A stretch of DNA of 64,000 bases from an uncultured virus (IMG/VR IMGVR_UViG_3300009159_008407) (IMGVR_UViG_3300009159_008407); one strand, 5' to 3'; counted from the stretch's first letter, positions 38,460-47,025 are shown. Made by a program: numbers and translations. Notes: generated from the sequence alone by a model not told the origin.

Positions 38460-39071
38460 GTGAATATGAGTCAAAAATATGATATTAAACAAGCAGAGCA
38501 AGCTTACGGTCAATTTCTAAGTGCACTTGGCTTCGATTGGCAAAATCATCCGCATATGGAAGATACACCTCGTCGAGTTACTAAAGCATGGGTTAACGAT
38601 CTAGCAGCAGGTTGCTTTATGGATGAACCTAAAATTACTGCATTTACTAATGATGGTCAATATGATGGTATGGTATGTCAAACTAATATACCTGTTGTGA
38701 GTATGTGTGCACATCATAACTTACCTTTCTTTGGATATGCTCACGTAGCTTATCTACCAGATCCAGATGGTAAAGTAATTGGTTTATCTAAACTAAATCG
38801 TATTGTTGATTATTTTTCACGCAGACCTTCTGTACAAGAAAATTTAACGATGAGTATTCACAAATATATTAGTGATTTATGTATTAATAATAAAGGTGTT
38901 GCAATTATGGTTGAAGCAAATCATACTTGTTGTTCTTTGAGAGGTATTAAACAAAATTCAACTATGCGTACAGCTCGTATGTCTGGTTCATTCCATGAGA
39001 CGGGTGATAATAGTAGAAATGAATTTTATAAATTTATTGAATTTGCTCAAGGTAGTAGATCTTTGGTTTAG
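38460..39071 (+). CDS. folE: GTP cyclohydrolase I
   Basis: DTPRRV, SMCAHHNLPF, GLSKLNR, VQE, HTCCSLRG. Confidence 0.95.
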   Translation: MNMSQKYDIKQAEQAYGQFLSALGFDWQNHPHMEDTPRRVTKAWVNDLAAGCFMDEPKITAFTNDGQYDGMVCQTNIPVVSMCAHHNLPFFGYAHVAYLPDPDGKVIGLSKLNRIVDYFSRRPSVQENLTMSIHKYISDLCINNKGVAIMVEANHTCCSLRGIKQNSTMRTARMSGSFHETGDNSRNEFYKFIEFAQGSRSLV

Positions 39072-39092
39072 GAAATAAAATATAATTCAGTT

Positions 39093-39635
39093 ATGAATAT
39101 TTTTGTAACTGATAAAGATCCTGTTGTATCTGCAATCAATCTTTGCGATCAACATGCAAGATCTAAAATGATTATTGAGTCCTGCATTATGCTTCAAAAC
39201 GCATTTTCGCAGGACTCGTTGTCTCATGAGACATGTCCTAGAACTAAAGCTGGGTCAGTACGTCGTAGAGGTAAAGGTTATGCAAAGCATCAATGTACTC
39301 TTTGGACGATTGAATCTCAAGCAAATTTTGAGTGGTTACTTGACCATGCTCTTGCGATGGTTGATGAACGTAATTTTAGATGGGTTGGTAGCCCAGAACA
39401 TTTTAGTTCAATATTTTTAAAATGGTGTGATCAAAATCGAAATCATACTATTGTTGAGCAACGTGGTTTAACACCATTTACGGTTGCAATTAGTAAGGAT
39501 AGTAAATGCCGTCAAACTAAAGGTTTTGATAAGCTATCTGTTATTGATCAATATAAGCAATATATTATACACGATAAAGATTTTGCAACTTGGACAAAGA
39601 GAAAACAACCTTGTTGGTATCAGAAAATATCATAA
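39093..39635 (+). CDS. pyrimidine-dimer glycosylase/DenV-like protein
   Basis: MNIFVTD.DP..SA..LCD.H..KMI.E..ML, HQCT.W, Y.QY..K..FATW. Confidence 0.75.
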   Translation: MNIFVTDKDPVVSAINLCDQHARSKMIIESCIMLQNAFSQDSLSHETCPRTKAGSVRRRGKGYAKHQCTLWTIESQANFEWLLDHALAMVDERNFRWVGSPEHFSSIFLKWCDQNRNHTIVEQRGLTPFTVAISKDSKCRQTKGFDKLSVIDQYKQYIIHDKDFATWTKRKQPCWYQKIS

Positions 39636-39765
39636 GGAAAGTCGTTATAATAAAGGTGTAAAGAATGAAAGTAGTAATACAATTAATTTAATACAACTTC
39701 ACAAATTTACTAAAAAGTGCATTTTTGATGTGGATAATTAGGCCGTCTGATATAAATAATTTCAG

Positions 39766-39864
39766 ATGAACCAAAATCTAACATATCTCAAACAGCGCGC
39801 CTTTAGTAAAGGTTGCGAGGGATATGATTGGTCTATTCCGATGCCTCAATCGATTTTAAGATAA
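39766..39864 (+). CDS. 32-aa peptide at head of tRNA region
   Basis: TATAAATA (39751) 7 nt upstream of ATG; MNQNLTYLKQRAFSKGCEGYDWSIPMPQSILR. Confidence 0.4.
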   Translation: MNQNLTYLKQRAFSKGCEGYDWSIPMPQSILR

Positions 39865-39925
39865 TAATTAAAAAAGATAGTTGAGATAAAGGAAATAGAT
39901 TATAATATTAGAATAATAAATAAGG

Positions 39926-40062
39926 TTCACGACGAGGGATAACCAAAATAGCCCAAGAGCTCGCAGAATGCGACGGAGATGAAAGTCTACAGTGATTAAT
40001 AATAAAGAAAAATAGCATATGGGTTTGTAACGATATCGTGAAGTTGCCTGGTGTAGCCACCA
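39926..40062 (+). ncRNA. candidate structured RNA ending in CCA
   Basis: TTCACGA/TCGTGAA stem, TCGCA/TGCGA hairpin, TGGTG/CACCA hairpin. Confidence 0.35.
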
Positions 40063-40079
40063 AAAACTATCTATTTTAA

Positions 40080-40155
40080 CCCTGTGAAGCAAATCTGGAG
40101 ATTGCGCTCGCCTGAAGAGTGAGACGGTAAGGTTCGATTCCTTACACAGGGACCA
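40080..40155 (+). tRNA. tRNA-Phe(GAA)
   Basis: cloverleaf, loop CTGAAGA, encoded CCA. Confidence 0.9.
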
Positions 40156-40160
40156 TTTAT

Positions 40161-40248
40161 GGGGTAGCGCTGAAGTTGGAGAGTCAGGACAGACTGTAAA
40201 TCTGTAGCCTCTGCGGCTGAGTTGGTTCGAATCCAACCTACCCCACCA
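40161..40248 (+). tRNA. tRNA-Tyr(GTA)
   Basis: loop CTGTAAA, long variable arm, CCA. Confidence 0.92.
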
Positions 40249-40253
40249 TTTAT

Positions 40254-40320
40254 GTCGGCTTCTACCCGACCTCTGAAGTTCAGACTTTCGGTGATCTGAA
40301 GTAAAAGAAAACACCGTCCA
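40254..40320 (+). ncRNA. pseudoknotted CCA-terminated non-tRNA element A
   Basis: GTCGG/CCGAC hairpin; TTCAGA/TCTGAA stem whose loop CGGTG complements 3' CACCG; ends TCCA. Confidence 0.55.
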
Positions 40321-40326
40321 ATTTAT

Positions 40327-40418
40327 GGAAGAATGGCTGAGCCTGGTTTAAGGCGGCGCACTTGAAATGCGTTGAGGCCTAAAAACCTCCGTGAGTTCGA
40401 ATCTCACTTCTTCCTCCA
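40327..40418 (+). tRNA. tRNA-Ser(TGA)
   Basis: loop CTTGAAA, long variable arm, CCA. Confidence 0.93.
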
Positions 40419-40419
40419 T

Positions 40420-40493
40420 GCGTTATGGATGTGATGGCTGCATATGACCTTGCCAAGGTTATTGAATGGGCTCGAATCCCATATAACGCTCCA
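40420..40493 (+). tRNA. tRNA-Gly(GCC)
   Basis: loop TTGCCAA, U73, CCA. Confidence 0.85.
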
Positions 40494-40501
40494 ATTTTTA
40501 T

Positions 40502-40585
40502 GCTGGATTACCCAAGTGGCCAAAGGGGATGGTTTTGTAAACCATTGCGATAGCTTCGTGAGTTCGAATCTCACATCCAGCTCCA
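40502..40585 (+). tRNA. tRNA-Thr(TGT) with extended variable arm
   Basis: loop TTTGTAA, CCA. Confidence 0.88.
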
Positions 40586-40594
40586 ATTTCAAAA

Positions 40595-40669
40595 GCGGTG
40601 TAAATGTTAATGGCTGCACACCTGACTTCCAATCAGAAGGAGAGGGTTCGATTCCCTCACACCGCACCA
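40595..40669 (+). tRNA. tRNA-Gly(TCC)
   Basis: loop CTTCCAA, CCA. Confidence 0.88.
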
Positions 40670-40676
40670 ATTTCAA

Positions 40677-40753
40677 CAGGATATAGCGCAGTCTGGTAGC
40701 GCACTCGCCTTGGAAGTGAGTGGTCGTTGGTTCGAATCCAACTATCCTGACCA
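40677..40753 (+). tRNA. tRNA-Pro(TGG)
   Basis: loop CTTGGAA, canonical D/T arms, CCA. Confidence 0.93.
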
Positions 40754-40755
40754 AT

Positions 40756-40847
40756 TTAGGCGGCAGGTCAATGGCCATTTATGATGTGTGTGGGAGCCAG
40801 ATATTGATTATTGATGCATAGATAGCGGAATAAGCACATCAGCCTAA
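40756..40847 (+). ncRNA. structured non-tRNA element B
   Basis: TTAGGC/GCCTAA closing stem, TGATGTG/CACATCA stem, possible GTCAATG/TATTGAT loop-loop pairing. Confidence 0.5.
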
Positions 40848-40858
40848 TTAATTTTCAA

Positions 40859-40935
40859 CAGGATATAGTTGTAGCCTGGTAGCACACTAGATTTGGGATC
40901 TAGAAGCGCGAGTTCAAATCTCGCTATCCTGACCA
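40859..40935 (+). tRNA. tRNA-Pro(TGG), second copy
   Basis: loop TTTGGGA, same acceptor stem as first copy, CCA. Confidence 0.88.
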
Positions 40936-40940
40936 GTTTA

Positions 40941-41023
40941 TAAGATCGGCCCGGAGCATACCCGATAAAAAGGCACTTAGAAAGAAACCTTCGCATAGCG
41001 AAAACTTACCAAAGACCGGCCCA
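40941..41023 (+). ncRNA. pseudoknotted CCA-terminated non-tRNA element C
   Basis: TAAG/CTTA, ATCGG/CCGAT, AAGG/CCTT, TCGC/GCGA stems; loop CCGG complements 3' CCGG; ends CCCA. Confidence 0.5.
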
Positions 41024-41026
41024 TAT

Positions 41027-41120
41027 GGAGAGTTAACTAGACAAGGCGCTAGGGATGTTTGCTAAACATCACGCACTTCCTAAAAAGAGGTGTGCGGGGC
41101 AGGACCGCAGCTCTCCTCCA
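41027..41120 (+). tRNA. tRNA-Ser(GCT), atypical T loop
   Basis: loop TTGCTAA, long variable arm, T loop GGCAGGA, CCA. Confidence 0.85.
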
Positions 41121-41123
41121 TTT

Positions 41124-41203
41124 TTGTAGAGCAGCAATGCTAGTGTGTGGCCGAAAGACTGATGGTGAGGCGTTTCGGGTAAAACCTCGCAACCATCCTA
41201 CAA
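41124..41203 (+). ncRNA. four-way-junction RNA with kissing loops, element D
   Basis: four helices with no unpaired junction bases, GCAA tetraloop, CCGAAA/TTTCGG loop complementarity. Confidence 0.65.
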
Positions 41204-41211
41204 TTTCAAAT

Positions 41212-41286
41212 GCCCCTGTAGCTGAGCAGCTTTAGCAATGGACCGATAAACCATAGACGTTGGTGCAAATCCAACTAGGGGTGCAA
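41212..41286 (+). tRNA. tRNA-Ile(GAT), degenerate
   Basis: loop CCGATAA (C33), A:A mismatch in anticodon stem, ends CAA not CCA. Confidence 0.6.
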
Positions 41287-41294
41287 ATTTCAAA

Positions 41295-41368
41295 CCTTCT
41301 GTAGCTGAGTGGTTTAGCTCTGTCTTGATAAGGCAGCGACGCAGGTTCAATTCCTGCCAGAAGGACCA
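41295..41368 (+). tRNA. tRNA-Ile(GAT)
   Basis: loop TTGATAA, CCA. Confidence 0.9.
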
Positions 41369-41374
41369 ATTTAT

Positions 41375-41450
41375 ATCCGGTAATGTTCCAAGGCTGGCGA
41401 CTTAGACTCCAAATCTGAGTGGGTGGGTTCGATTCCCACACCGGGTGCCA
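41375..41450 (+). tRNA. tRNA-Trp(CCA)
   Basis: loop CTCCAAA, G73, CCA. Confidence 0.9.
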
Positions 41451-41458
41451 TTTTAAAT

Positions 41459-41533
41459 GCCTCGTTAGTGTAATGGAAAGCACGTTTCGCTACGAACGAA
41501 AAAGTAGGAGTTCGAATCTTCTATGAGGTACCA
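41459..41533 (+). tRNA. tRNA-Arg(ACG)
   Basis: loop CTACGAA, CCA. Confidence 0.9.
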
Positions 41534-41537
41534 TTTC

Positions 41538-41612
41538 CGCGCAATAGTGTAAGGTAAAGCACGCTGGCCACACTGGTGCCAGAGGAAGGGTGAAAAGCCT
41601 GATGCGCCACCA
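41538..41612 (+). tRNA. tRNA-like gene with 9-nt anticodon loop, identity undetermined
   Basis: intact D arm and CTGGC/GCCAG stem, loop CACACTGGT, degenerate T arm, ACCA end. Confidence 0.55.
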
Positions 41613-41620
41613 TTTCAAAT

Positions 41621-41697
41621 ACTCTCGATGCTACAGTAGATCGGCACCCGGCTCTTAACCGGATATGATGAGGTTGCAACTACCTCCGAGAGTACCA
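41621..41697 (+). tRNA. tRNA-Lys(CTT)
   Basis: loop CTCTTAA, T loop TGCAACT, CCA. Confidence 0.85.
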
Positions 41698-41706
41698 ATT
41701 TCAAAT

Positions 41707-41783
41707 GCCCGTATAGCACAACTGGTAGATGCATATGATTTAGGATCATAATGTTGGGGGTTCGAATCCCTCTACGGGTACCA
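41707..41783 (+). tRNA. tRNA-Leu(TAG), short variable arm
   Basis: loop TTTAGGA, CCA. Confidence 0.9.
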
Positions 41784-41792
41784 ATTTCAAAT

Positions 41793-41867
41793 GGCTCCTT
41801 AGTGTAATGGTTAGCACAGAAGATTTTGAATCTTTTAGTCCAAGTTCGAGTCTTGGGGGAGCTGCCA
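41793..41867 (+). tRNA. tRNA-Gln(TTG)
   Basis: loop TTTTGAA, CCA. Confidence 0.9.
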
Positions 41868-41876
41868 ATTTCAAAA

Positions 41877-41950
41877 GCCTCTATAATTCAATGGTAGAAT
41901 GATCGTTTCATACGCGATAAACGCTGGTTCGATTCCAGCTAGAGGCACCA
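41877..41950 (+). tRNA. tRNA-Met(CAT) elongator (or Ile2)
   Basis: loop TTCATAC, CCA. Confidence 0.85.
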
Positions 41951-41959
41951 ATTTCAAAA

Positions 41960-42036
41960 CATCCTAAAGCCACAGTAGACCGGCACCGGACTTTTAATCC
42001 GGTATGGTGAGGTTGCAACTACCTCTGGGATGACCA
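41960..42036 (+). tRNA. tRNA-Lys(TTT)
   Basis: loop CTTTTAA, T loop TGCAACT, CCA. Confidence 0.85.
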
Positions 42037-42082
42037 ATTTCAAAAGGAAATAAGTTATAATAAAAGAGTAATTAATTTAAAT

Positions 42083-42159
42083 GACGGTGTAGATTAGTTG
42101 GTTAAATCGTCACGCTTTCAACGTGAAGACCGCGGGTTCGATCCCCGTCGCCGTTACCA
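42083..42159 (+). tRNA. tRNA-Glu(TTC)
   Basis: loop CTTTCAA, CCA. Confidence 0.92.
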
Positions 42160-42168
42160 ATTTCAAAT

Positions 42169-42246
42169 AGAGCTGAAGTCAAACAGCATTGACACTCGCC
42201 TGTCGAGCGAGATATAGAGTGGGGGCAGCACCCATCAGCTCTGCCA
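42169..42246 (+). tRNA. tRNA-Asp(GTC), atypical T loop
   Basis: loop CTGTCGA, G73, T loop GGCAGCA, CCA. Confidence 0.85.
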
Positions 42247-42255
42247 ATTTCAAAT

Positions 42256-42329
42256 TGCAGGTAAGTGGTCTAGTGACCATTCTGGGCTCATAACCCATAG
42301 AGCGCGGTGCGATTCCCGACCTGCATCCA
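42256..42329 (+). tRNA. initiator tRNA-fMet(CAT)
   Basis: GGG/CCC anticodon-stem pairs around CTCATAA, CCA. Confidence 0.82.
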
Positions 42330-42334
42330 ATTTT

Positions 42335-42682
42335 ATGAAACAACCAATCTTCGTTATCAATAAAAGTAAAATCAAAGAGATAGTTGAGCATCAGTGTAAG
42401 TTTACAGGAATTCCTTATTCTCTAGATTGGGGTCATATTAAATCAATTGAAGAACTTTTTGAAAAACTCGATAACGAGGCAACTGAATTTGGGTGTATTA
42501 GAATGCATCGAGTTCATGATTGCATCTACAGCTTTGAGTCACATAAGATGATTACCAATGCAAATAGAATGCTCGATAGAGTTTTTGCATTGTGTAAAAT
42601 ATACAGAGAAGATTTAAACAAAATTTTAGTTGAACAACAATTAGACAGAATATATATTGTTGCAGATAAAAATCCCCAGTAG
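42335..42682 (+). CDS. hypothetical protein inside tRNA array
   Basis: 115-aa ORF; its TAG lies inside tRNA-Asn. Confidence 0.65.
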   Translation: MKQPIFVINKSKIKEIVEHQCKFTGIPYSLDWGHIKSIEELFEKLDNEATEFGCIRMHRVHDCIYSFESHKMITNANRMLDRVFALCKIYREDLNKILVEQQLDRIYIVADKNPQ

Positions 42683-42747
42683 CTCAGTGGTAGAGCGGAC
42701 GGCTGTTAACCGTCATGTCGTACGTTCGAACCGTACCTGGGGAGCCA
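42673..42747 (+). tRNA. tRNA-Asn(GTT)
   Basis: canonical cloverleaf, loop CTGTTAA, CCA. Confidence 0.95.
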
Positions 42748-42789
42748 ATTTAATAGTTGATTCAGATAGGAAAGATATTATAATAAAGT

Positions 42790-42987
42790 ATGACAAAAAC
42801 ATATGACCAACTTAAAGAACTAACTGAAGCTTTTGCAATTGATGATGAAAAATTCATCAACGGTAAATCATCTGCAAGTACAAACGCACGAAAGCGTCTA
42901 CAAGAGATTATCGTACTAGCTAAAGCTCGTCGTAATGAAATTACAGCAGAGAAAAATGCTCGTAAAGAGACAAAAGTTTCAGAGTAG
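42790..42987 (+). CDS. Hc1/histone H1-like small basic protein
   Basis: EKF..GKSSASTNARKRLQEI...K..R.EI pattern. Confidence 0.75.
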   Translation: MTKTYDQLKELTEAFAIDDEKFINGKSSASTNARKRLQEIIVLAKARRNEITAEKNARKETKVSE

Positions 42988-42994
42988 GTAAATT

Positions 42995-43069
42995 GCCCGA
43001 ATAGCTCAACGATAGAGCGCCCGCCTTACACGCGGATTGTTGTAGGTTTGAATCCTACTTCGGGTACCA
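42995..43069 (+). tRNA. tRNA-Val(TAC)
   Basis: loop CTTACAC, CCA. Confidence 0.9.
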
Positions 43070-43075
43070 TTTTAT

Positions 43076-43150
43076 GGGGCGTTAGTGATAATGGTAGCAC
43101 ATGATCCTTGCACGGTTGAAGAAAGGGTTCGAATCCCTTACGCTCCACCA
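43076..43150 (+). tRNA. tRNA-Ala(TGC)
   Basis: G3-U70 pair, loop CTTGCAC, CCA. Confidence 0.92.
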
Positions 43151-43153
43151 ATT

Positions 43154-43498
43154 TTGATAGTAAGGAAAGACGCAGGTTGCGTGTAATGAGAAAATAATGT
43201 GAGGGGCCGGGTAAGACCTGAAATGCATTGCAATGCAAAGTATGATAATACTGGACGGAAGCATTATGAAGTGTATATTACAAACGGAGAATGGGCAGAG
43301 AGGGATCTGTAGATAGACCAGATACTCTTGGATACCTCACCGGCTATCGATATTCAGAAATATTCAACTAACTGTCAGTTTCGTTGCTGTTCCTGGCACT
43401 TTGGCTGTTCAGATTCACGTCTGACTGGGTGCGCTTGCACAAGCTCATTGAATGGTTTCTGAGGCACTCGTTGAATTAGCTACTCAATAGAGTGTCAA
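43154..43498 (+). ncRNA. about 345-nt structured RNA candidate, element E
   Basis: GC-richer than coding DNA, long-range stems, followed by the tRNA spacer ATTTTCAAAT. Confidence 0.5.
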
Positions 43499-43510
43499 CA
43501 ATTTTCAAAT

Positions 43511-43585
43511 GCGCAATGAGCCAGCTGATGTAGGTGGCGGTCTGCAAAATCGCTTAGCAGGGTTTGATTCCCTGATTGCGCTCCA
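43511..43585 (+). tRNA. tRNA-Cys(GCA)
   Basis: loop CTGCAAA, U73, CCA. Confidence 0.88.
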
Positions 43586-43677: not shown

Positions 43678-43752
43678 TCTCTTCGTATCATAAAAGTAAT
43701 GTCATCGCCTGTGAAGCGATCTAAGATGGAGCATTACCATCCAAGAGAACCA
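43678..43752 (+). tRNA. tRNA-His(GTG), atypical
   Basis: loop CTGTGAA; A73, no encoded G-1, T loop AGCATTA, CCA. Confidence 0.7.
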
Positions 43753-43760
43753 CTTTCAAT

Positions 43761-43837
43761 GCCCTGGTAGCACAATTGGTAGATGCATCGGATTTAAGAT
43801 CCGTGTGTTGTCGGTTCGAATCCGACTCAGGGTACCA
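43761..43837 (+). tRNA. tRNA-Leu(TAA), short variable arm
   Basis: loop TTTAAGA, CCA. Confidence 0.9.
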
Positions 43838-43846
43838 ATTTACTAC

Positions 43847-44089
43847 ATGAAAGAAGAAGAAACATTACAACAAATGCTCAACAAGTGTTTACGAAGAAAC
43901 ATAGTATTTGATTTTCATGGACGAAAATGTAGAGCAAATTTAAATCTAACATTACAATACATTGCATCCTTAGATTTTGAGGGCAGTGATATTTCTAAAG
44001 AGTATGTGGATTACCCCTCATTGCAAGACATTAATTTCTTTATGAAAGTTGAAAAATATCTTAAAGCTGAAGGGTTCTTCGATATATGA
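43847..44089 (+). CDS. hypothetical protein
   Basis: ATG just after tRNA-Leu; MKEEETLQQ. Confidence 0.6.
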   Translation: MKEEETLQQMLNKCLRRNIVFDFHGRKCRANLNLTLQYIASLDFEGSDISKEYVDYPSLQDINFFMKVEKYLKAEGFFDI

Positions 44090-44094
44090 TCATC

Positions 44095-44962
44095 TGGCAG
44101 TTGCAATGAGGTATTTATAAATTTAAAATCTAACAAATTTTTATATAAATATATGCATGATGGATTCACGCAGAAATATTCTCAAAAAAATGATTGGTAC
44201 ATTGATAGCTTCTTTTGCTAAACCAATACAAGCTTTACCTGCAGCAAAAAGACTTTCATCTGTTGGCAGCGGATTAAAAGGTGCTACAATCAACATTGGT
44301 AGATTTAAAAAAGGCGATTGGTATAATATTTTTTCGACTATTACCACTAGTGATAACGCAAAAATATTTGCACAAAAAGCAAATCAACAATTGAGTTCAA
44401 TCAAAATAAATGATGAATTAGCAAAAGCAATTGTGAATTATGTTGCAAAAGATGGGGATACATTTGCAGATTATGTACAAGAAACACTATTAGATAAATT
44501 TCCAAGTAATAAAAATTTTACACCAGAAGATGTCGAACAATTTGTGCAGCACCCTCTAGACAAAGCCATGGAGTTTTTAAAAGATCCTAAATATCATTCA
44601 GCCGGTGACATTTATTTTAAAAACGCAATGGGTGAACCAAGAGTATTGTACCCTGCTGAAAAAATGATAGATAAAGGGTTATTTCACGGTGATCGAGAAA
44701 TAATAAGCACTATTGATTCAGTTATCAACGATGCAATCAAGGTTGTCAAGAGTGAAATGGGTGAAAAGAAAAAAGAAAAAGCATATGCTAACAGCATTGA
44801 ATACTCTCCAGCAGATTATCTTGGAGGTGCGCCGCAGGGTGGTTCTGAACAGCACGGATACAAACTTGCAGTTGATCATCACACCACTGACATGAAAAAT
44901 TTAATTGCACTGTATGAACAGGTGCAACAACATCATTGATGGTTGGCTGTTGCAATGAGGTA
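44095..44962. repeat. 19-bp direct repeat TGGCWGTTGCAATGAGGTA at 44095-44113 and 44944-44962
   Basis: 18/19 identity, flanking one ORF. Confidence 0.8.
44157..44939 (+). CDS. hypothetical protein with twin-arginine-like N terminus
   Basis: SRRNILKK + short hydrophobic stretch; TATAAATA upstream. Confidence 0.7.
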   Translation: MMDSRRNILKKMIGTLIASFAKPIQALPAAKRLSSVGSGLKGATINIGRFKKGDWYNIFSTITTSDNAKIFAQKANQQLSSIKINDELAKAIVNYVAKDGDTFADYVQETLLDKFPSNKNFTPEDVEQFVQHPLDKAMEFLKDPKYHSAGDIYFKNAMGEPRVLYPAEKMIDKGLFHGDREIISTIDSVINDAIKVVKSEMGEKKKEKAYANSIEYSPADYLGGAPQGGSEQHGYKLAVDHHTTDMKNLIALYEQVQQHH

Positions 44963-45117: not shown

Positions 45118-45223
45118 ATCATTATTTATGTTTGGTGTTAGATCAAAATTTAAAACAATAGTGGAACTCTAAAGGAAATACATTATAATAGTAGTAAGTA
45201 ACAAAACAATTACTACAAAATAT

Positions 45224-46929: not shown

Positions 46930-47025
46930 ACTCCAGTAGCTCAATTGGCAGAGCGGAAAGCTTATACCTTTCGTATGGCCCAGATTAGGCCGCGGTTGTC
47001 GGTTCGATCCCGGCCTGGAGTACCA
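46930..47025 (+). tRNA. tRNA-Ile(TAT) with long variable arm
   Basis: ACTCCAG/CTGGAGT acceptor, loop CTTATAC, GGCC-CAGATTA-GGCC variable arm, CCA. Confidence 0.88.

Follow-up and report, generated by a model that had tools for sequence, protein, structure and literature searches.

Conserved structured RNAs among the tRNA genes of an uncultured T4-like lake phage

The 64,000-nucleotide (nt) stretch IMGVR_UViG_3300009159_008407, referred to here at its full length as the window, belongs to an uncultured T4-like phage from lake water, and its tRNA array contains a set of inserts that are not tRNAs, which are the subject of this analysis. Among the T4-type genes of the window are those for a gp23-like major head protein, the portal, a gp43-type DNA polymerase, UvsX, an SbcCD-like nuclease and ribonucleotide reductase, and its major capsid protein shares only ~33% identity with the counterpart in any T4-like phage of GenBank. 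ARAGORN predicted 22 standard tRNAs, all on the + strand between positions 40080 and 43837 and nearly all with an encoded CCA end. An A/T spacer of the type (A)TTT(C/T)AA follows 21 of these 22 tRNAs, all six of the additional, odd tRNAs described below and most of the inserts, while the majority of tRNA pairs in the array are separated by just 1-10 nt and hold no insert at all.

Six stretches had been flagged in the original prediction as GC-richer inserts lying between the tRNAs. Their G+C content (42.3-50.0%) is indeed raised over that of the window (33.3%; tRNA mean, 50.9%) and they do occupy gaps of the array, except that the first of them, 39926-40062, is a leader upstream of the first tRNA. 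Likewise, the stretch 43154-43498, taken for a single insert, consists of two RNAs, each with its own terminal closing stem. The units are the following:

39924..40068, + strand: U1, leader RNA of the array (flagged as 39926-40062), with homologs and covariation
40254..40320, + strand: U2, 5' hairpin and H-type pseudoknot candidate, with a conserved module
40756..40847, + strand: U3, 92-nt RNA candidate, with one relative
40941..41023, + strand: U4, 83-nt insert ending CCCA, a candidate whose structure is unproven
41124..41203, + strand: U6, 80-nt three-way-junction RNA, with nine copies and covariation
43154..43350, + strand: U13a, ~197-nt multi-helix RNA in the first half of the flagged 43154-43498, with covariation
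43354..43496, + strand: U13b, ~143-nt RNA, with covariation

The further claim that several inserts are followed by the spacers typical of the tRNAs was borne out at U2 (ATTTAT), U6 (AATTTCAAAT) and 43154-43498 (CAATTTTCAAAT). At U3 the array-type A/T spacer begins 3 nt beyond the end of the unit, and U4 is without one, being followed only by TAT.

That the inserts have no tRNA cloverleaf was confirmed by two kinds of search. None of the six flagged stretches was called a tRNA by ARAGORN in its standard, 80%-threshold or mitochondrial mode, bar one mitochondrial-mode call ('Arg tct', 40243-40296) that is spurious and overlaps the 3' end of tRNA-Tyr, and the Rfam tRNA model (RF00005) did not match any of them even at E ≤ 10; by these tools, a T arm, D arm or cloverleaf was found in zero of the six. 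The covariance-model comparison proposed with the prediction was run against Rfam 15, where all 20 matches at the gathering score were tRNAs and no known family fell on any insert. Relaxing the threshold to E ≤ 10 added a sole overlap with an insert, tmRNA_permuted at 43123-43207, which scored 13.9 bits (gathering score, 47) with an E value of 9.9. No RNase P match was found in 43154-43498, and the idea of one large RNase P-like or tmRNA-like RNA there was dropped, given two units with stems of their own, the second of which occurs alone in a related contig (L003).

Self-complementary stems had been proposed for each insert, and single-sequence folding did not sustain this. Minimum free energy (MFE) z-scores against dinucleotide shuffles were -1.10 for U1, -1.63 for U2, +0.15 for U3, -0.42 for U4 and -0.35 for U6, and -0.93 and -0.11 for the two halves of the large gap (43154-43350 and 43354-43496), compared with -2.74 for the Ser-GCU tRNA in the same test. 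As these folding energies are at chance, the case for structure rests on relatives of the units, and it was among relatives that the proposal held for U1, U6, U13a and U13b, whose stems carry compensatory changes.

These relatives came from uncultured phages. A blastn search of the inserts in near and distant modes against 50,697 GenBank phage records gave, among the matches listed, only tRNA matches, and none at all for 43140-43520. A search with a flanking protein led to 39 IMG/VR loci, five of them with at least three tRNA genes; a scan for pairs of array spacers separated by the length of a tRNA added 19 stretches, and patterns specific to single units added a few more contigs. A metagenome scan with the spacer pattern gave, among the matches listed, five loci with at least three tRNAs and one useful, near-identical contig. 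The resulting comparison set holds 14 other contigs representing 12 phage types, or 13 contig groups counting the window, and three of the relatives are complete or near-complete genomes of 184-225 kb. Covariation was judged against 500 shuffles of each alignment, in which the counts, taken over 3 to 9 related sequences per unit, are not probabilities, and against pairings with slid partners. In U1, U6, U13a and U13b the covariation score lies above all 500 shuffles and every slid control, and the G-U pairs of these four units fit the + strand only, that is, the strand of the tRNAs. On this comparative evidence, U1, U6, U13a and U13b are conserved structured RNAs that have been kept through compensatory changes.

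The best-sampled unit is U6, with nine distinct copies in 9 of the 13 contig groups, plus a shortened second copy in L007. Its predicted three-way junction is formed by P1 (41124-41129 with 41198-41203), the hairpin P2 (41130-41141) and P3/P5 (41161-41172 with 41188-41197), and a pseudoknot candidate joins 41151-41156 to 41173-41178. All 225 cells of its 25 pairs are paired, compensatory changes occur in five pairs of P1, P2 and P3, and the covariation score of 0.187 compares with 0.096 in the shuffles (none of 500 reaching it) and at most 0.071 with slid partners. Invariant columns make up 66 of the 89 in the alignment, unpaired positions among them. U6 is a single-copy unit in each genome and is present in two of the three near-complete relatives. 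A covariance model of U6 run over 46 loci recovered only its source copies and their duplicates, with no diverged copy. A hammerhead reading prompted by the words CUGAUG and GAAA was rejected by eye, as the words are separated by 2 nt and CUGAUG is part of a helix that covaries; no ribozyme family of Rfam matched U6 at E ≤ 10.

U1 is built from a nearly invariant 5' module with hairpins at 39936-39954 and 39961-39973, found in 8 of 13 contig groups, and a 3' module (7 of 13) that comprises one hairpin of variable sequence and a GGTG-TAGC-CACC hairpin; GGTT may pair with AACT as a closing stem. In its eight sequences, 97.9% of the cells of 24 predicted pairs are paired and eight pairs show compensatory changes, for a covariation score of 0.320 against 0.191 in the shuffles (0/500) and no more than 0.113 with slid partners. 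An H-type pseudoknot considered for the 5' module (GGTT with RACC) was dropped, position 22 covarying with position 30 in a plain hairpin. Scanning with a U1 pattern returned known contigs only.

In the large gap, U13a is closed by a terminal stem between 43154-43161 and 43343-43350 and was compared in three sequences, those of the window, L043 (97% identity) and L041 (75%), which were also the only contigs returned by its pattern scan. Nine of its 58 predicted pairs carry compensatory changes, a number reached by 1 of 500 shuffles, with 94.8% of cells paired and a score of 0.259 (shuffled 0.151, 0/500; slid ≤0.080). U13b is more widespread, its conserved 3' part being present in 9 of 13 groups and its pattern scan having added two new contigs, and it occurs without U13a in L003 and several further contigs. 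A long stem, built partly from spacer-like 5' letters (TTCAGAA), encloses a swappable hairpin domain and a hairpin with a GCUU loop, and the 3' hairpin presents a 9-nt loop, AUU(A/U)GCUAC, which varies at one of its nine positions across seven sequences. These seven sequences support 46 pairs with 93.8% of cells paired and compensatory changes in 14 pairs (0/500 shuffles), and the score is 0.336, compared with 0.204 for shuffles (0/500) and up to 0.137 for slid partners.

Copies of U6 in eight other groups show 88-99% identity and those of the U1 5' module in seven groups 85-98%, whereas the flanking coding DNA is only 76-84% identical to that of L005 and L007. The neighbour of U6 varies: the tRNA before it is Ser(GCU) in the window, L003, L043 and L186 and Pro in L041, L006/L007 and L047, with its borders falling at spacers in each context. 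Judging from these arrangements, the units behave like exchangeable, independent cassettes that move between array positions and not like parts of the neighbouring tRNAs. Compared with L047/L058, conservation of the array is a mosaic, with tRNA-Ala 100%, tRNA-Ser and tRNA-Gly(GCC) 97% and tRNA-Trp 78% identical, which suggests that single units are often traded among arrays.

The case for the other three flagged units is weaker. U2 consists of a 5' hairpin (40254-40270; 5-bp stem, 7-nt loop CUUCUAC) that only the window and L003 possess, followed by a pseudoknot candidate with S1 at 40279-40284/40295-40300, S2 at 40289-40293/40312-40316 and an A-rich third loop, and its 3' end is UCCA. Four of 13 groups (window, L003, L005 and L181) share the pseudoknot module at 93-100% identity, and three different 5' modules precede it. 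Pseudoknot or loop-loop complementarity had been noted in most inserts, but candidates can be named only in U6 and U2, and since both of these helices are invariant, covariation does not test them. U3, with a terminal stem (40756-40761/40842-40847) and an inner one (40783-40788/40835-40840), has one type of relative (L047/L058, 76-78% identity); none of the 19 predicted pairs is broken in either sequence, two compensatory changes and one wobble change being seen, which is only suggestive of a conserved structure. U4 has a G+C content of 48% in a 33% genome. Pattern scans for U3 and U4 gave four and five new matches, respectively, the former all due to chance and the latter all in unrelated high-GC DNA.

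We then considered how the array may be expressed. The motif AGGAAA-N5-TATAAT(A/T) occurs six times in the window against 0.67 copies expected, always on the + strand and in or beside the array, as found by a motif scan:

39070-39087, + strand: motif copy
39635-39652, + strand: motif copy
39890-39907, + strand: promoter-like motif AGGAAA-N5-TATAATA directly upstream of U1
42045-42062, + strand: motif copy
42768-42785, + strand: motif copy
45173-45190, + strand: motif copy

In relatives, too, the leader is preceded by this motif (L184), and similar motifs lie within their arrays. Probably it represents a type of phage promoter from which the array and small genes nearby are transcribed. A search of the array for terminator-like sites on the + strand found none outside the tRNAs. 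Between two of the motifs, 39653-39889 is AT-rich (28.5% G+C) and without a convincing open reading frame (ORF); RNA-library contigs of 100% identity cover it from 39669 and 39676 onwards, ~20 nt past the first motif.

Evidence from RNA consists of contigs assembled from four of seven public runs containing part of the stretch, the other three (X4, X6 and X7) having small shares of it. In three lake-water metatranscriptome runs from three studies, 100%-identical contigs cover 39669-40100, 40254-40435, 42623-43290, 43169-43395 and 43211-43584; U1 is covered at this identity by contigs of all three studies. The contigs bridge U2 to tRNA-Ser, U13a to U13b and U13b to tRNA-Cys, and at four positions (40254, which is where U2 begins, 42328, 43584 and 43752) a contig ends no more than 1 nt from a unit border. 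Run X5 contains an RNA-library contig from a relative (40932-41138, depth 68) that carries a slightly different copy of U4 together with the Ser-GCU tRNA. Coverage has gaps, for instance at 41412-41864. The downstream genes at 43828-44100 have zero depth in the three lake-water runs, and in this the uneven coverage fits RNA better than DNA. We regard the coverage as a hint of transcription, not as proof.

Given this evidence, the reading that we favour, with a probability of roughly 0.6, is that the inserts are small structured RNA genes which share the transcription unit of the tRNAs, are released at the common spacers and act in trans. We infer co-transcription, excision at the spacers, stability and trans action. 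For the excision by tRNA processing, already anticipated in the original prediction, the evidence consists of the shared spacers, the cassette borders that coincide with them, and the RNA-library contigs that cover and bridge the units, some of which end at unit borders. Phage promoters of the AGGAAA-N5-TATAATA type would drive long precursors in which tRNAs and inserts stand head to tail, and host endonucleases would then cut the A/U-rich spacers that separate all units. RNase E prefers R-N↓W-U-U (the arrow marks the cut), and an RNase E-type cut in CCAA↓UUU would be the best fit. Units that end in a helix plus CCA might be trimmed by tRNA-end enzymes, the compact folds would persist as free RNAs, and the target of these would be a phage or host protein or RNA. 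Trans action appears the most likely mode because the loops and junctions that stay unpaired show the same invariance as the stems.

Several points weigh against this reading. Single-sequence folding energies are no better than those of shuffled sequences, and the alignments behind the covariation are small, with structures derived from the same alignments as those tested, which inflates the paired-cell and slid-control comparisons. U2 shows zero compensatory changes among its relatives; for U3, 123 of 500 shuffles do equally well, and with two sequences this control is uninformative; U4, which the window shares with the L043 contig alone (99% identity), has no informative relative. The patterns of U6 and U13b had no match in 185,579 species genomes, so that these families are seen only in this phage lineage, and U6 is missing from one complete relative with a full array, and is thus dispensable, or accessory. 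The RNA-library contigs do not show discrete RNA ends, strand or stability and may stem from contaminating DNA. The RNases of the mechanism are those of an assumed host, and the sequences of the units reveal no function.

The array also holds tRNA-shaped units of unusual form, some of which bear on the alternatives weighed below. One of them, U7, was missing from the flagged stretches, and six others are tRNAs recovered by relaxed ARAGORN searches:

41537..41612, + strand: U7, tRNA-shaped unit without an anticodon loop (MFE fold)
41027-41120: odd tRNA, Ser-GCU
41620-41696: odd tRNA, Lys-CUU
41960-42036: odd tRNA, Lys-UUU
42169-42246: odd tRNA, Asp-GUC
42256-42329: odd tRNA with anticodon CAU
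43678-43752: odd tRNA, His-GUG

U7 has an acceptor stem, a D arm resembling that of the neighbouring tRNA-Arg and a CACCA end, whereas the T arm is aberrant and the place of the anticodon arm is taken by an extended hairpin that lacks a 7-nt loop. Its MFE z-score is -0.04, it was called by no ARAGORN mode and no Rfam tRNA model, and its single homolog, 96% identical in L005, provides no covariation. The six odd tRNAs escaped ARAGORN in standard mode as well as the Rfam tRNA model at E ≤ 10, and were recovered by the 80%-threshold and mitochondrial modes. They cover exactly the amino acids absent from the standard set (Ser-AGY, Lys, Asp and His) and so fill the missing decoding, which makes the six inserts extras and not missing decoders. 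Many combine a regular 5-bp T stem with a T-loop of the NGCRNNA type in place of TTCRANY, that is, with G for U55 (AGCATTA, AGCGTTA, TGCAACT, GGCAGGA and GGCAGCA). Arrays of relatives (L003, L181, L187, L198, L200, L203, L204, L210 and L213) yield 4-17 tRNA calls each that appear in mitochondrial mode only, some of which are surely false. Standard tRNA finders, then, overlook real tRNAs in phage arrays and leave real RNA genes unannotated there. By eye, the His tRNA shows a D-loop sequence, GTAATG, that is complementary to CATTAC of its T loop and stem.

The set of units changes among the relatives. Their arrays hold at least 11 further types of non-tRNA unit that the window lacks, represented by hand-picked seeds X1-X11, which raises the number of types counted to at least 20 among the 13 contig groups. 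X1 occurs in four of these groups, X2 in three, X4 in three and X5 in seven, and the other seven seeds only in their source contigs. One of the extra units, ~150 nt long, occupies the position of U2 in the window, and another measures ~230 nt. Seeds include:

6566-6722 in L182: further unit in a relative
8248-8480 in L179: further unit in a relative
11102-11201 in L179: further unit in a relative
13551-13650 in L179: further unit in a relative
other stretches in relatives: further units

The arrays of relatives also contain ORF-bearing insertions (L182 7200-7709, L006 3340-3806 and L179 10116-11025). In L182 the insertion opens with the initial 14 letters of tRNA-Pro, which gives the impression of a broken tRNA gene; an intron or a homing endonuclease may be responsible.

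A different account of the inserts would make them cis-acting parts of the precursor, a leader and structured spacers that guide or time processing, prevent misfolding of the neighbouring tRNAs or protect the ends of the precursor, and that have no free life. Such a role is possible above all for U1, which is a leader and not an internal unit, and it would suit U13b, whose long stem uses the TTCAGAA spacer letters so that structure and processing site overlap. The constant placement of the units between tRNAs and on their strand fits it too, as do RNA-library contigs that join units and tRNAs in the way a precursor would. Plain structural spacers, however, would have no need of the invariant unpaired loops seen in U6 and at eight of nine loop positions in U13b; the same unit works beside different tRNAs, most tRNA pairs manage without any such element at distances of 1-10 nt, and one complete relative has a full array and no U6. 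We therefore consider a purely cis-acting role rather unlikely. For some of the inserts, mainly U4 and perhaps U3 and U7, one might instead suppose non-functional DNA left by decayed tRNA genes, homing endonucleases or recombination. U4 is confined to the window and one 99% relative and folds like its shuffles, U7 resembles a tRNA stripped of its anticodon loop and T loop next to a tRNA-Arg with a similar D arm, and the arrays are mosaic (tRNA identity to a single relative ranges from 78 to 100%) and carry ORF insertions, including the one that begins with the 5' part of tRNA-Pro. Yet compensatory changes and conservation above that of coding DNA exclude this for U1, U6, U13a and U13b, and even U4 keeps its raised G+C content and is covered at depth 68 in the RNA-library contig of a relative, which leaves us regarding remnants as improbable.

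Released RNAs could also serve, along the lines of the example given in the prediction, as decoys or sponges. Their targets would be host defences directed at tRNAs, whether by cutting (anticodon nucleases, for instance) or by binding, or else the tRNA-processing enzymes of the host. The units sit in tRNA slots, U1, U2, U4 and U7 end in CCA, the repertoire varies in cassette fashion, a frequent trait of counter-defence genes, and the same arrays hold many tRNAs with altered T-loops. The U2 loop CUUCUAC, moreover, matches six of seven letters of the anticodon loop of the phage tRNA-Arg(UCU) (43594-43668), and it is this hairpin that the mitochondrial mode of ARAGORN reads as 'Arg tct'. Set against this, a six-of-seven match to one of ~28 anticodon loops has an estimated chance of ~4% per loop and several loops were examined, so that it lies within chance, and the hairpin is limited to the window and L003. 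All six inserts are devoid of a T arm, D arm and cloverleaf, and no defence or anti-defence gene was linked to the units. Decoys of this kind have, in our view, only a slim chance of being the explanation. A broader conjecture, that the array is a platform for expressing and processing a swappable RNA library which, together with the tRNAs with rebuilt T-loops, counters host systems that recognise, cut or sequester tRNAs or the enzymes that process them, strikes us as quite unlikely as well; if it were true, the mystery RNAs of tRNA clusters, including RNAC and RNAD of T4, would form one class of RNA-based anti-defence or takeover factors.

The comparison with T4 drawn in the prediction proved apt for small RNA genes of the kind that we favour, rnaC and rnaD lying directly after tRNA-Arg in the T4 cluster. 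For both of these RNAs, the passages on them in two papers state that their roles are not known, about fifty years after discovery (PMC3014915, PMC9697503). Like RNAC (species 1, rnaC; 139 nt) and RNAD (species 2, rnaD; 119 nt), the units of the window (67-197 nt) lie within a phage tRNA cluster, on the tRNA strand and a few bases from tRNAs. The T4 order is tRNA-Arg, AAT, rnaD, AA, rnaC, so that few A/T letters stand between units, as in the window; rnaD ends in CACCA, as do U1 and U7, and the T4 cluster holds the homing endonuclease gene segB. The differences are that RNAC has a canonical T-arm sequence and no insert of the window does, and that T4 has two such RNAs whereas the array of the window has seven or eight, in a set that changes among relatives. 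No homology to rnaC or rnaD was detected, the blastn matches listed being tRNAs only and the U6 covariance model staying silent on the T4 tRNA region. RNAC and RNAD thus offer the closest analogy, and the inserts would be of the same kind without being homologs.

GOLLD and ROOL are large ornate RNAs of several hundred nucleotides that are often found beside phage tRNA genes. They share with the units of the window that they are structured RNAs linked to phage tRNA clusters, but the latter are far shorter (67-197 nt), and neither family, though named as a parallel at the outset, matched at the gathering score or at E ≤ 10. Phage T5 encodes, among its tRNA genes, the non-decoding 'tRNA-like stable RNAs' RNA1 and RNA2; the inserts of the window, U7 excepted, are not tRNA-shaped. 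A literature search, with subscription journals outside its coverage, returned no description of these RNAs or of non-tRNA RNAs in the tRNA arrays of uncultured phages. U1, U6, U13a and U13b are new, uncatalogued families of a known kind, and the undescribed small-RNA repertoire that had been predicted stands as a set of uncatalogued, conserved structured RNAs, with structure backed by compensatory changes across relatives in these four units. Comparative support for the leader, the 80-nt pseudoknot candidate and the two large-gap RNAs would justify new Rfam entries. It also indicates that RNAs of this sort can form a variable, cassette-like repertoire and not just a fixed pair, and the loops that are conserved, the domains that can be swapped and the distribution of the units over complete genomes provide material for asking what role this class of RNA plays.

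Outside the array, 3 kb downstream, the window encodes a tRNA-Ile(UAU) at 46930-47025 that is unusually long at 96 nt; the copies in relatives measure 93-96 nt.

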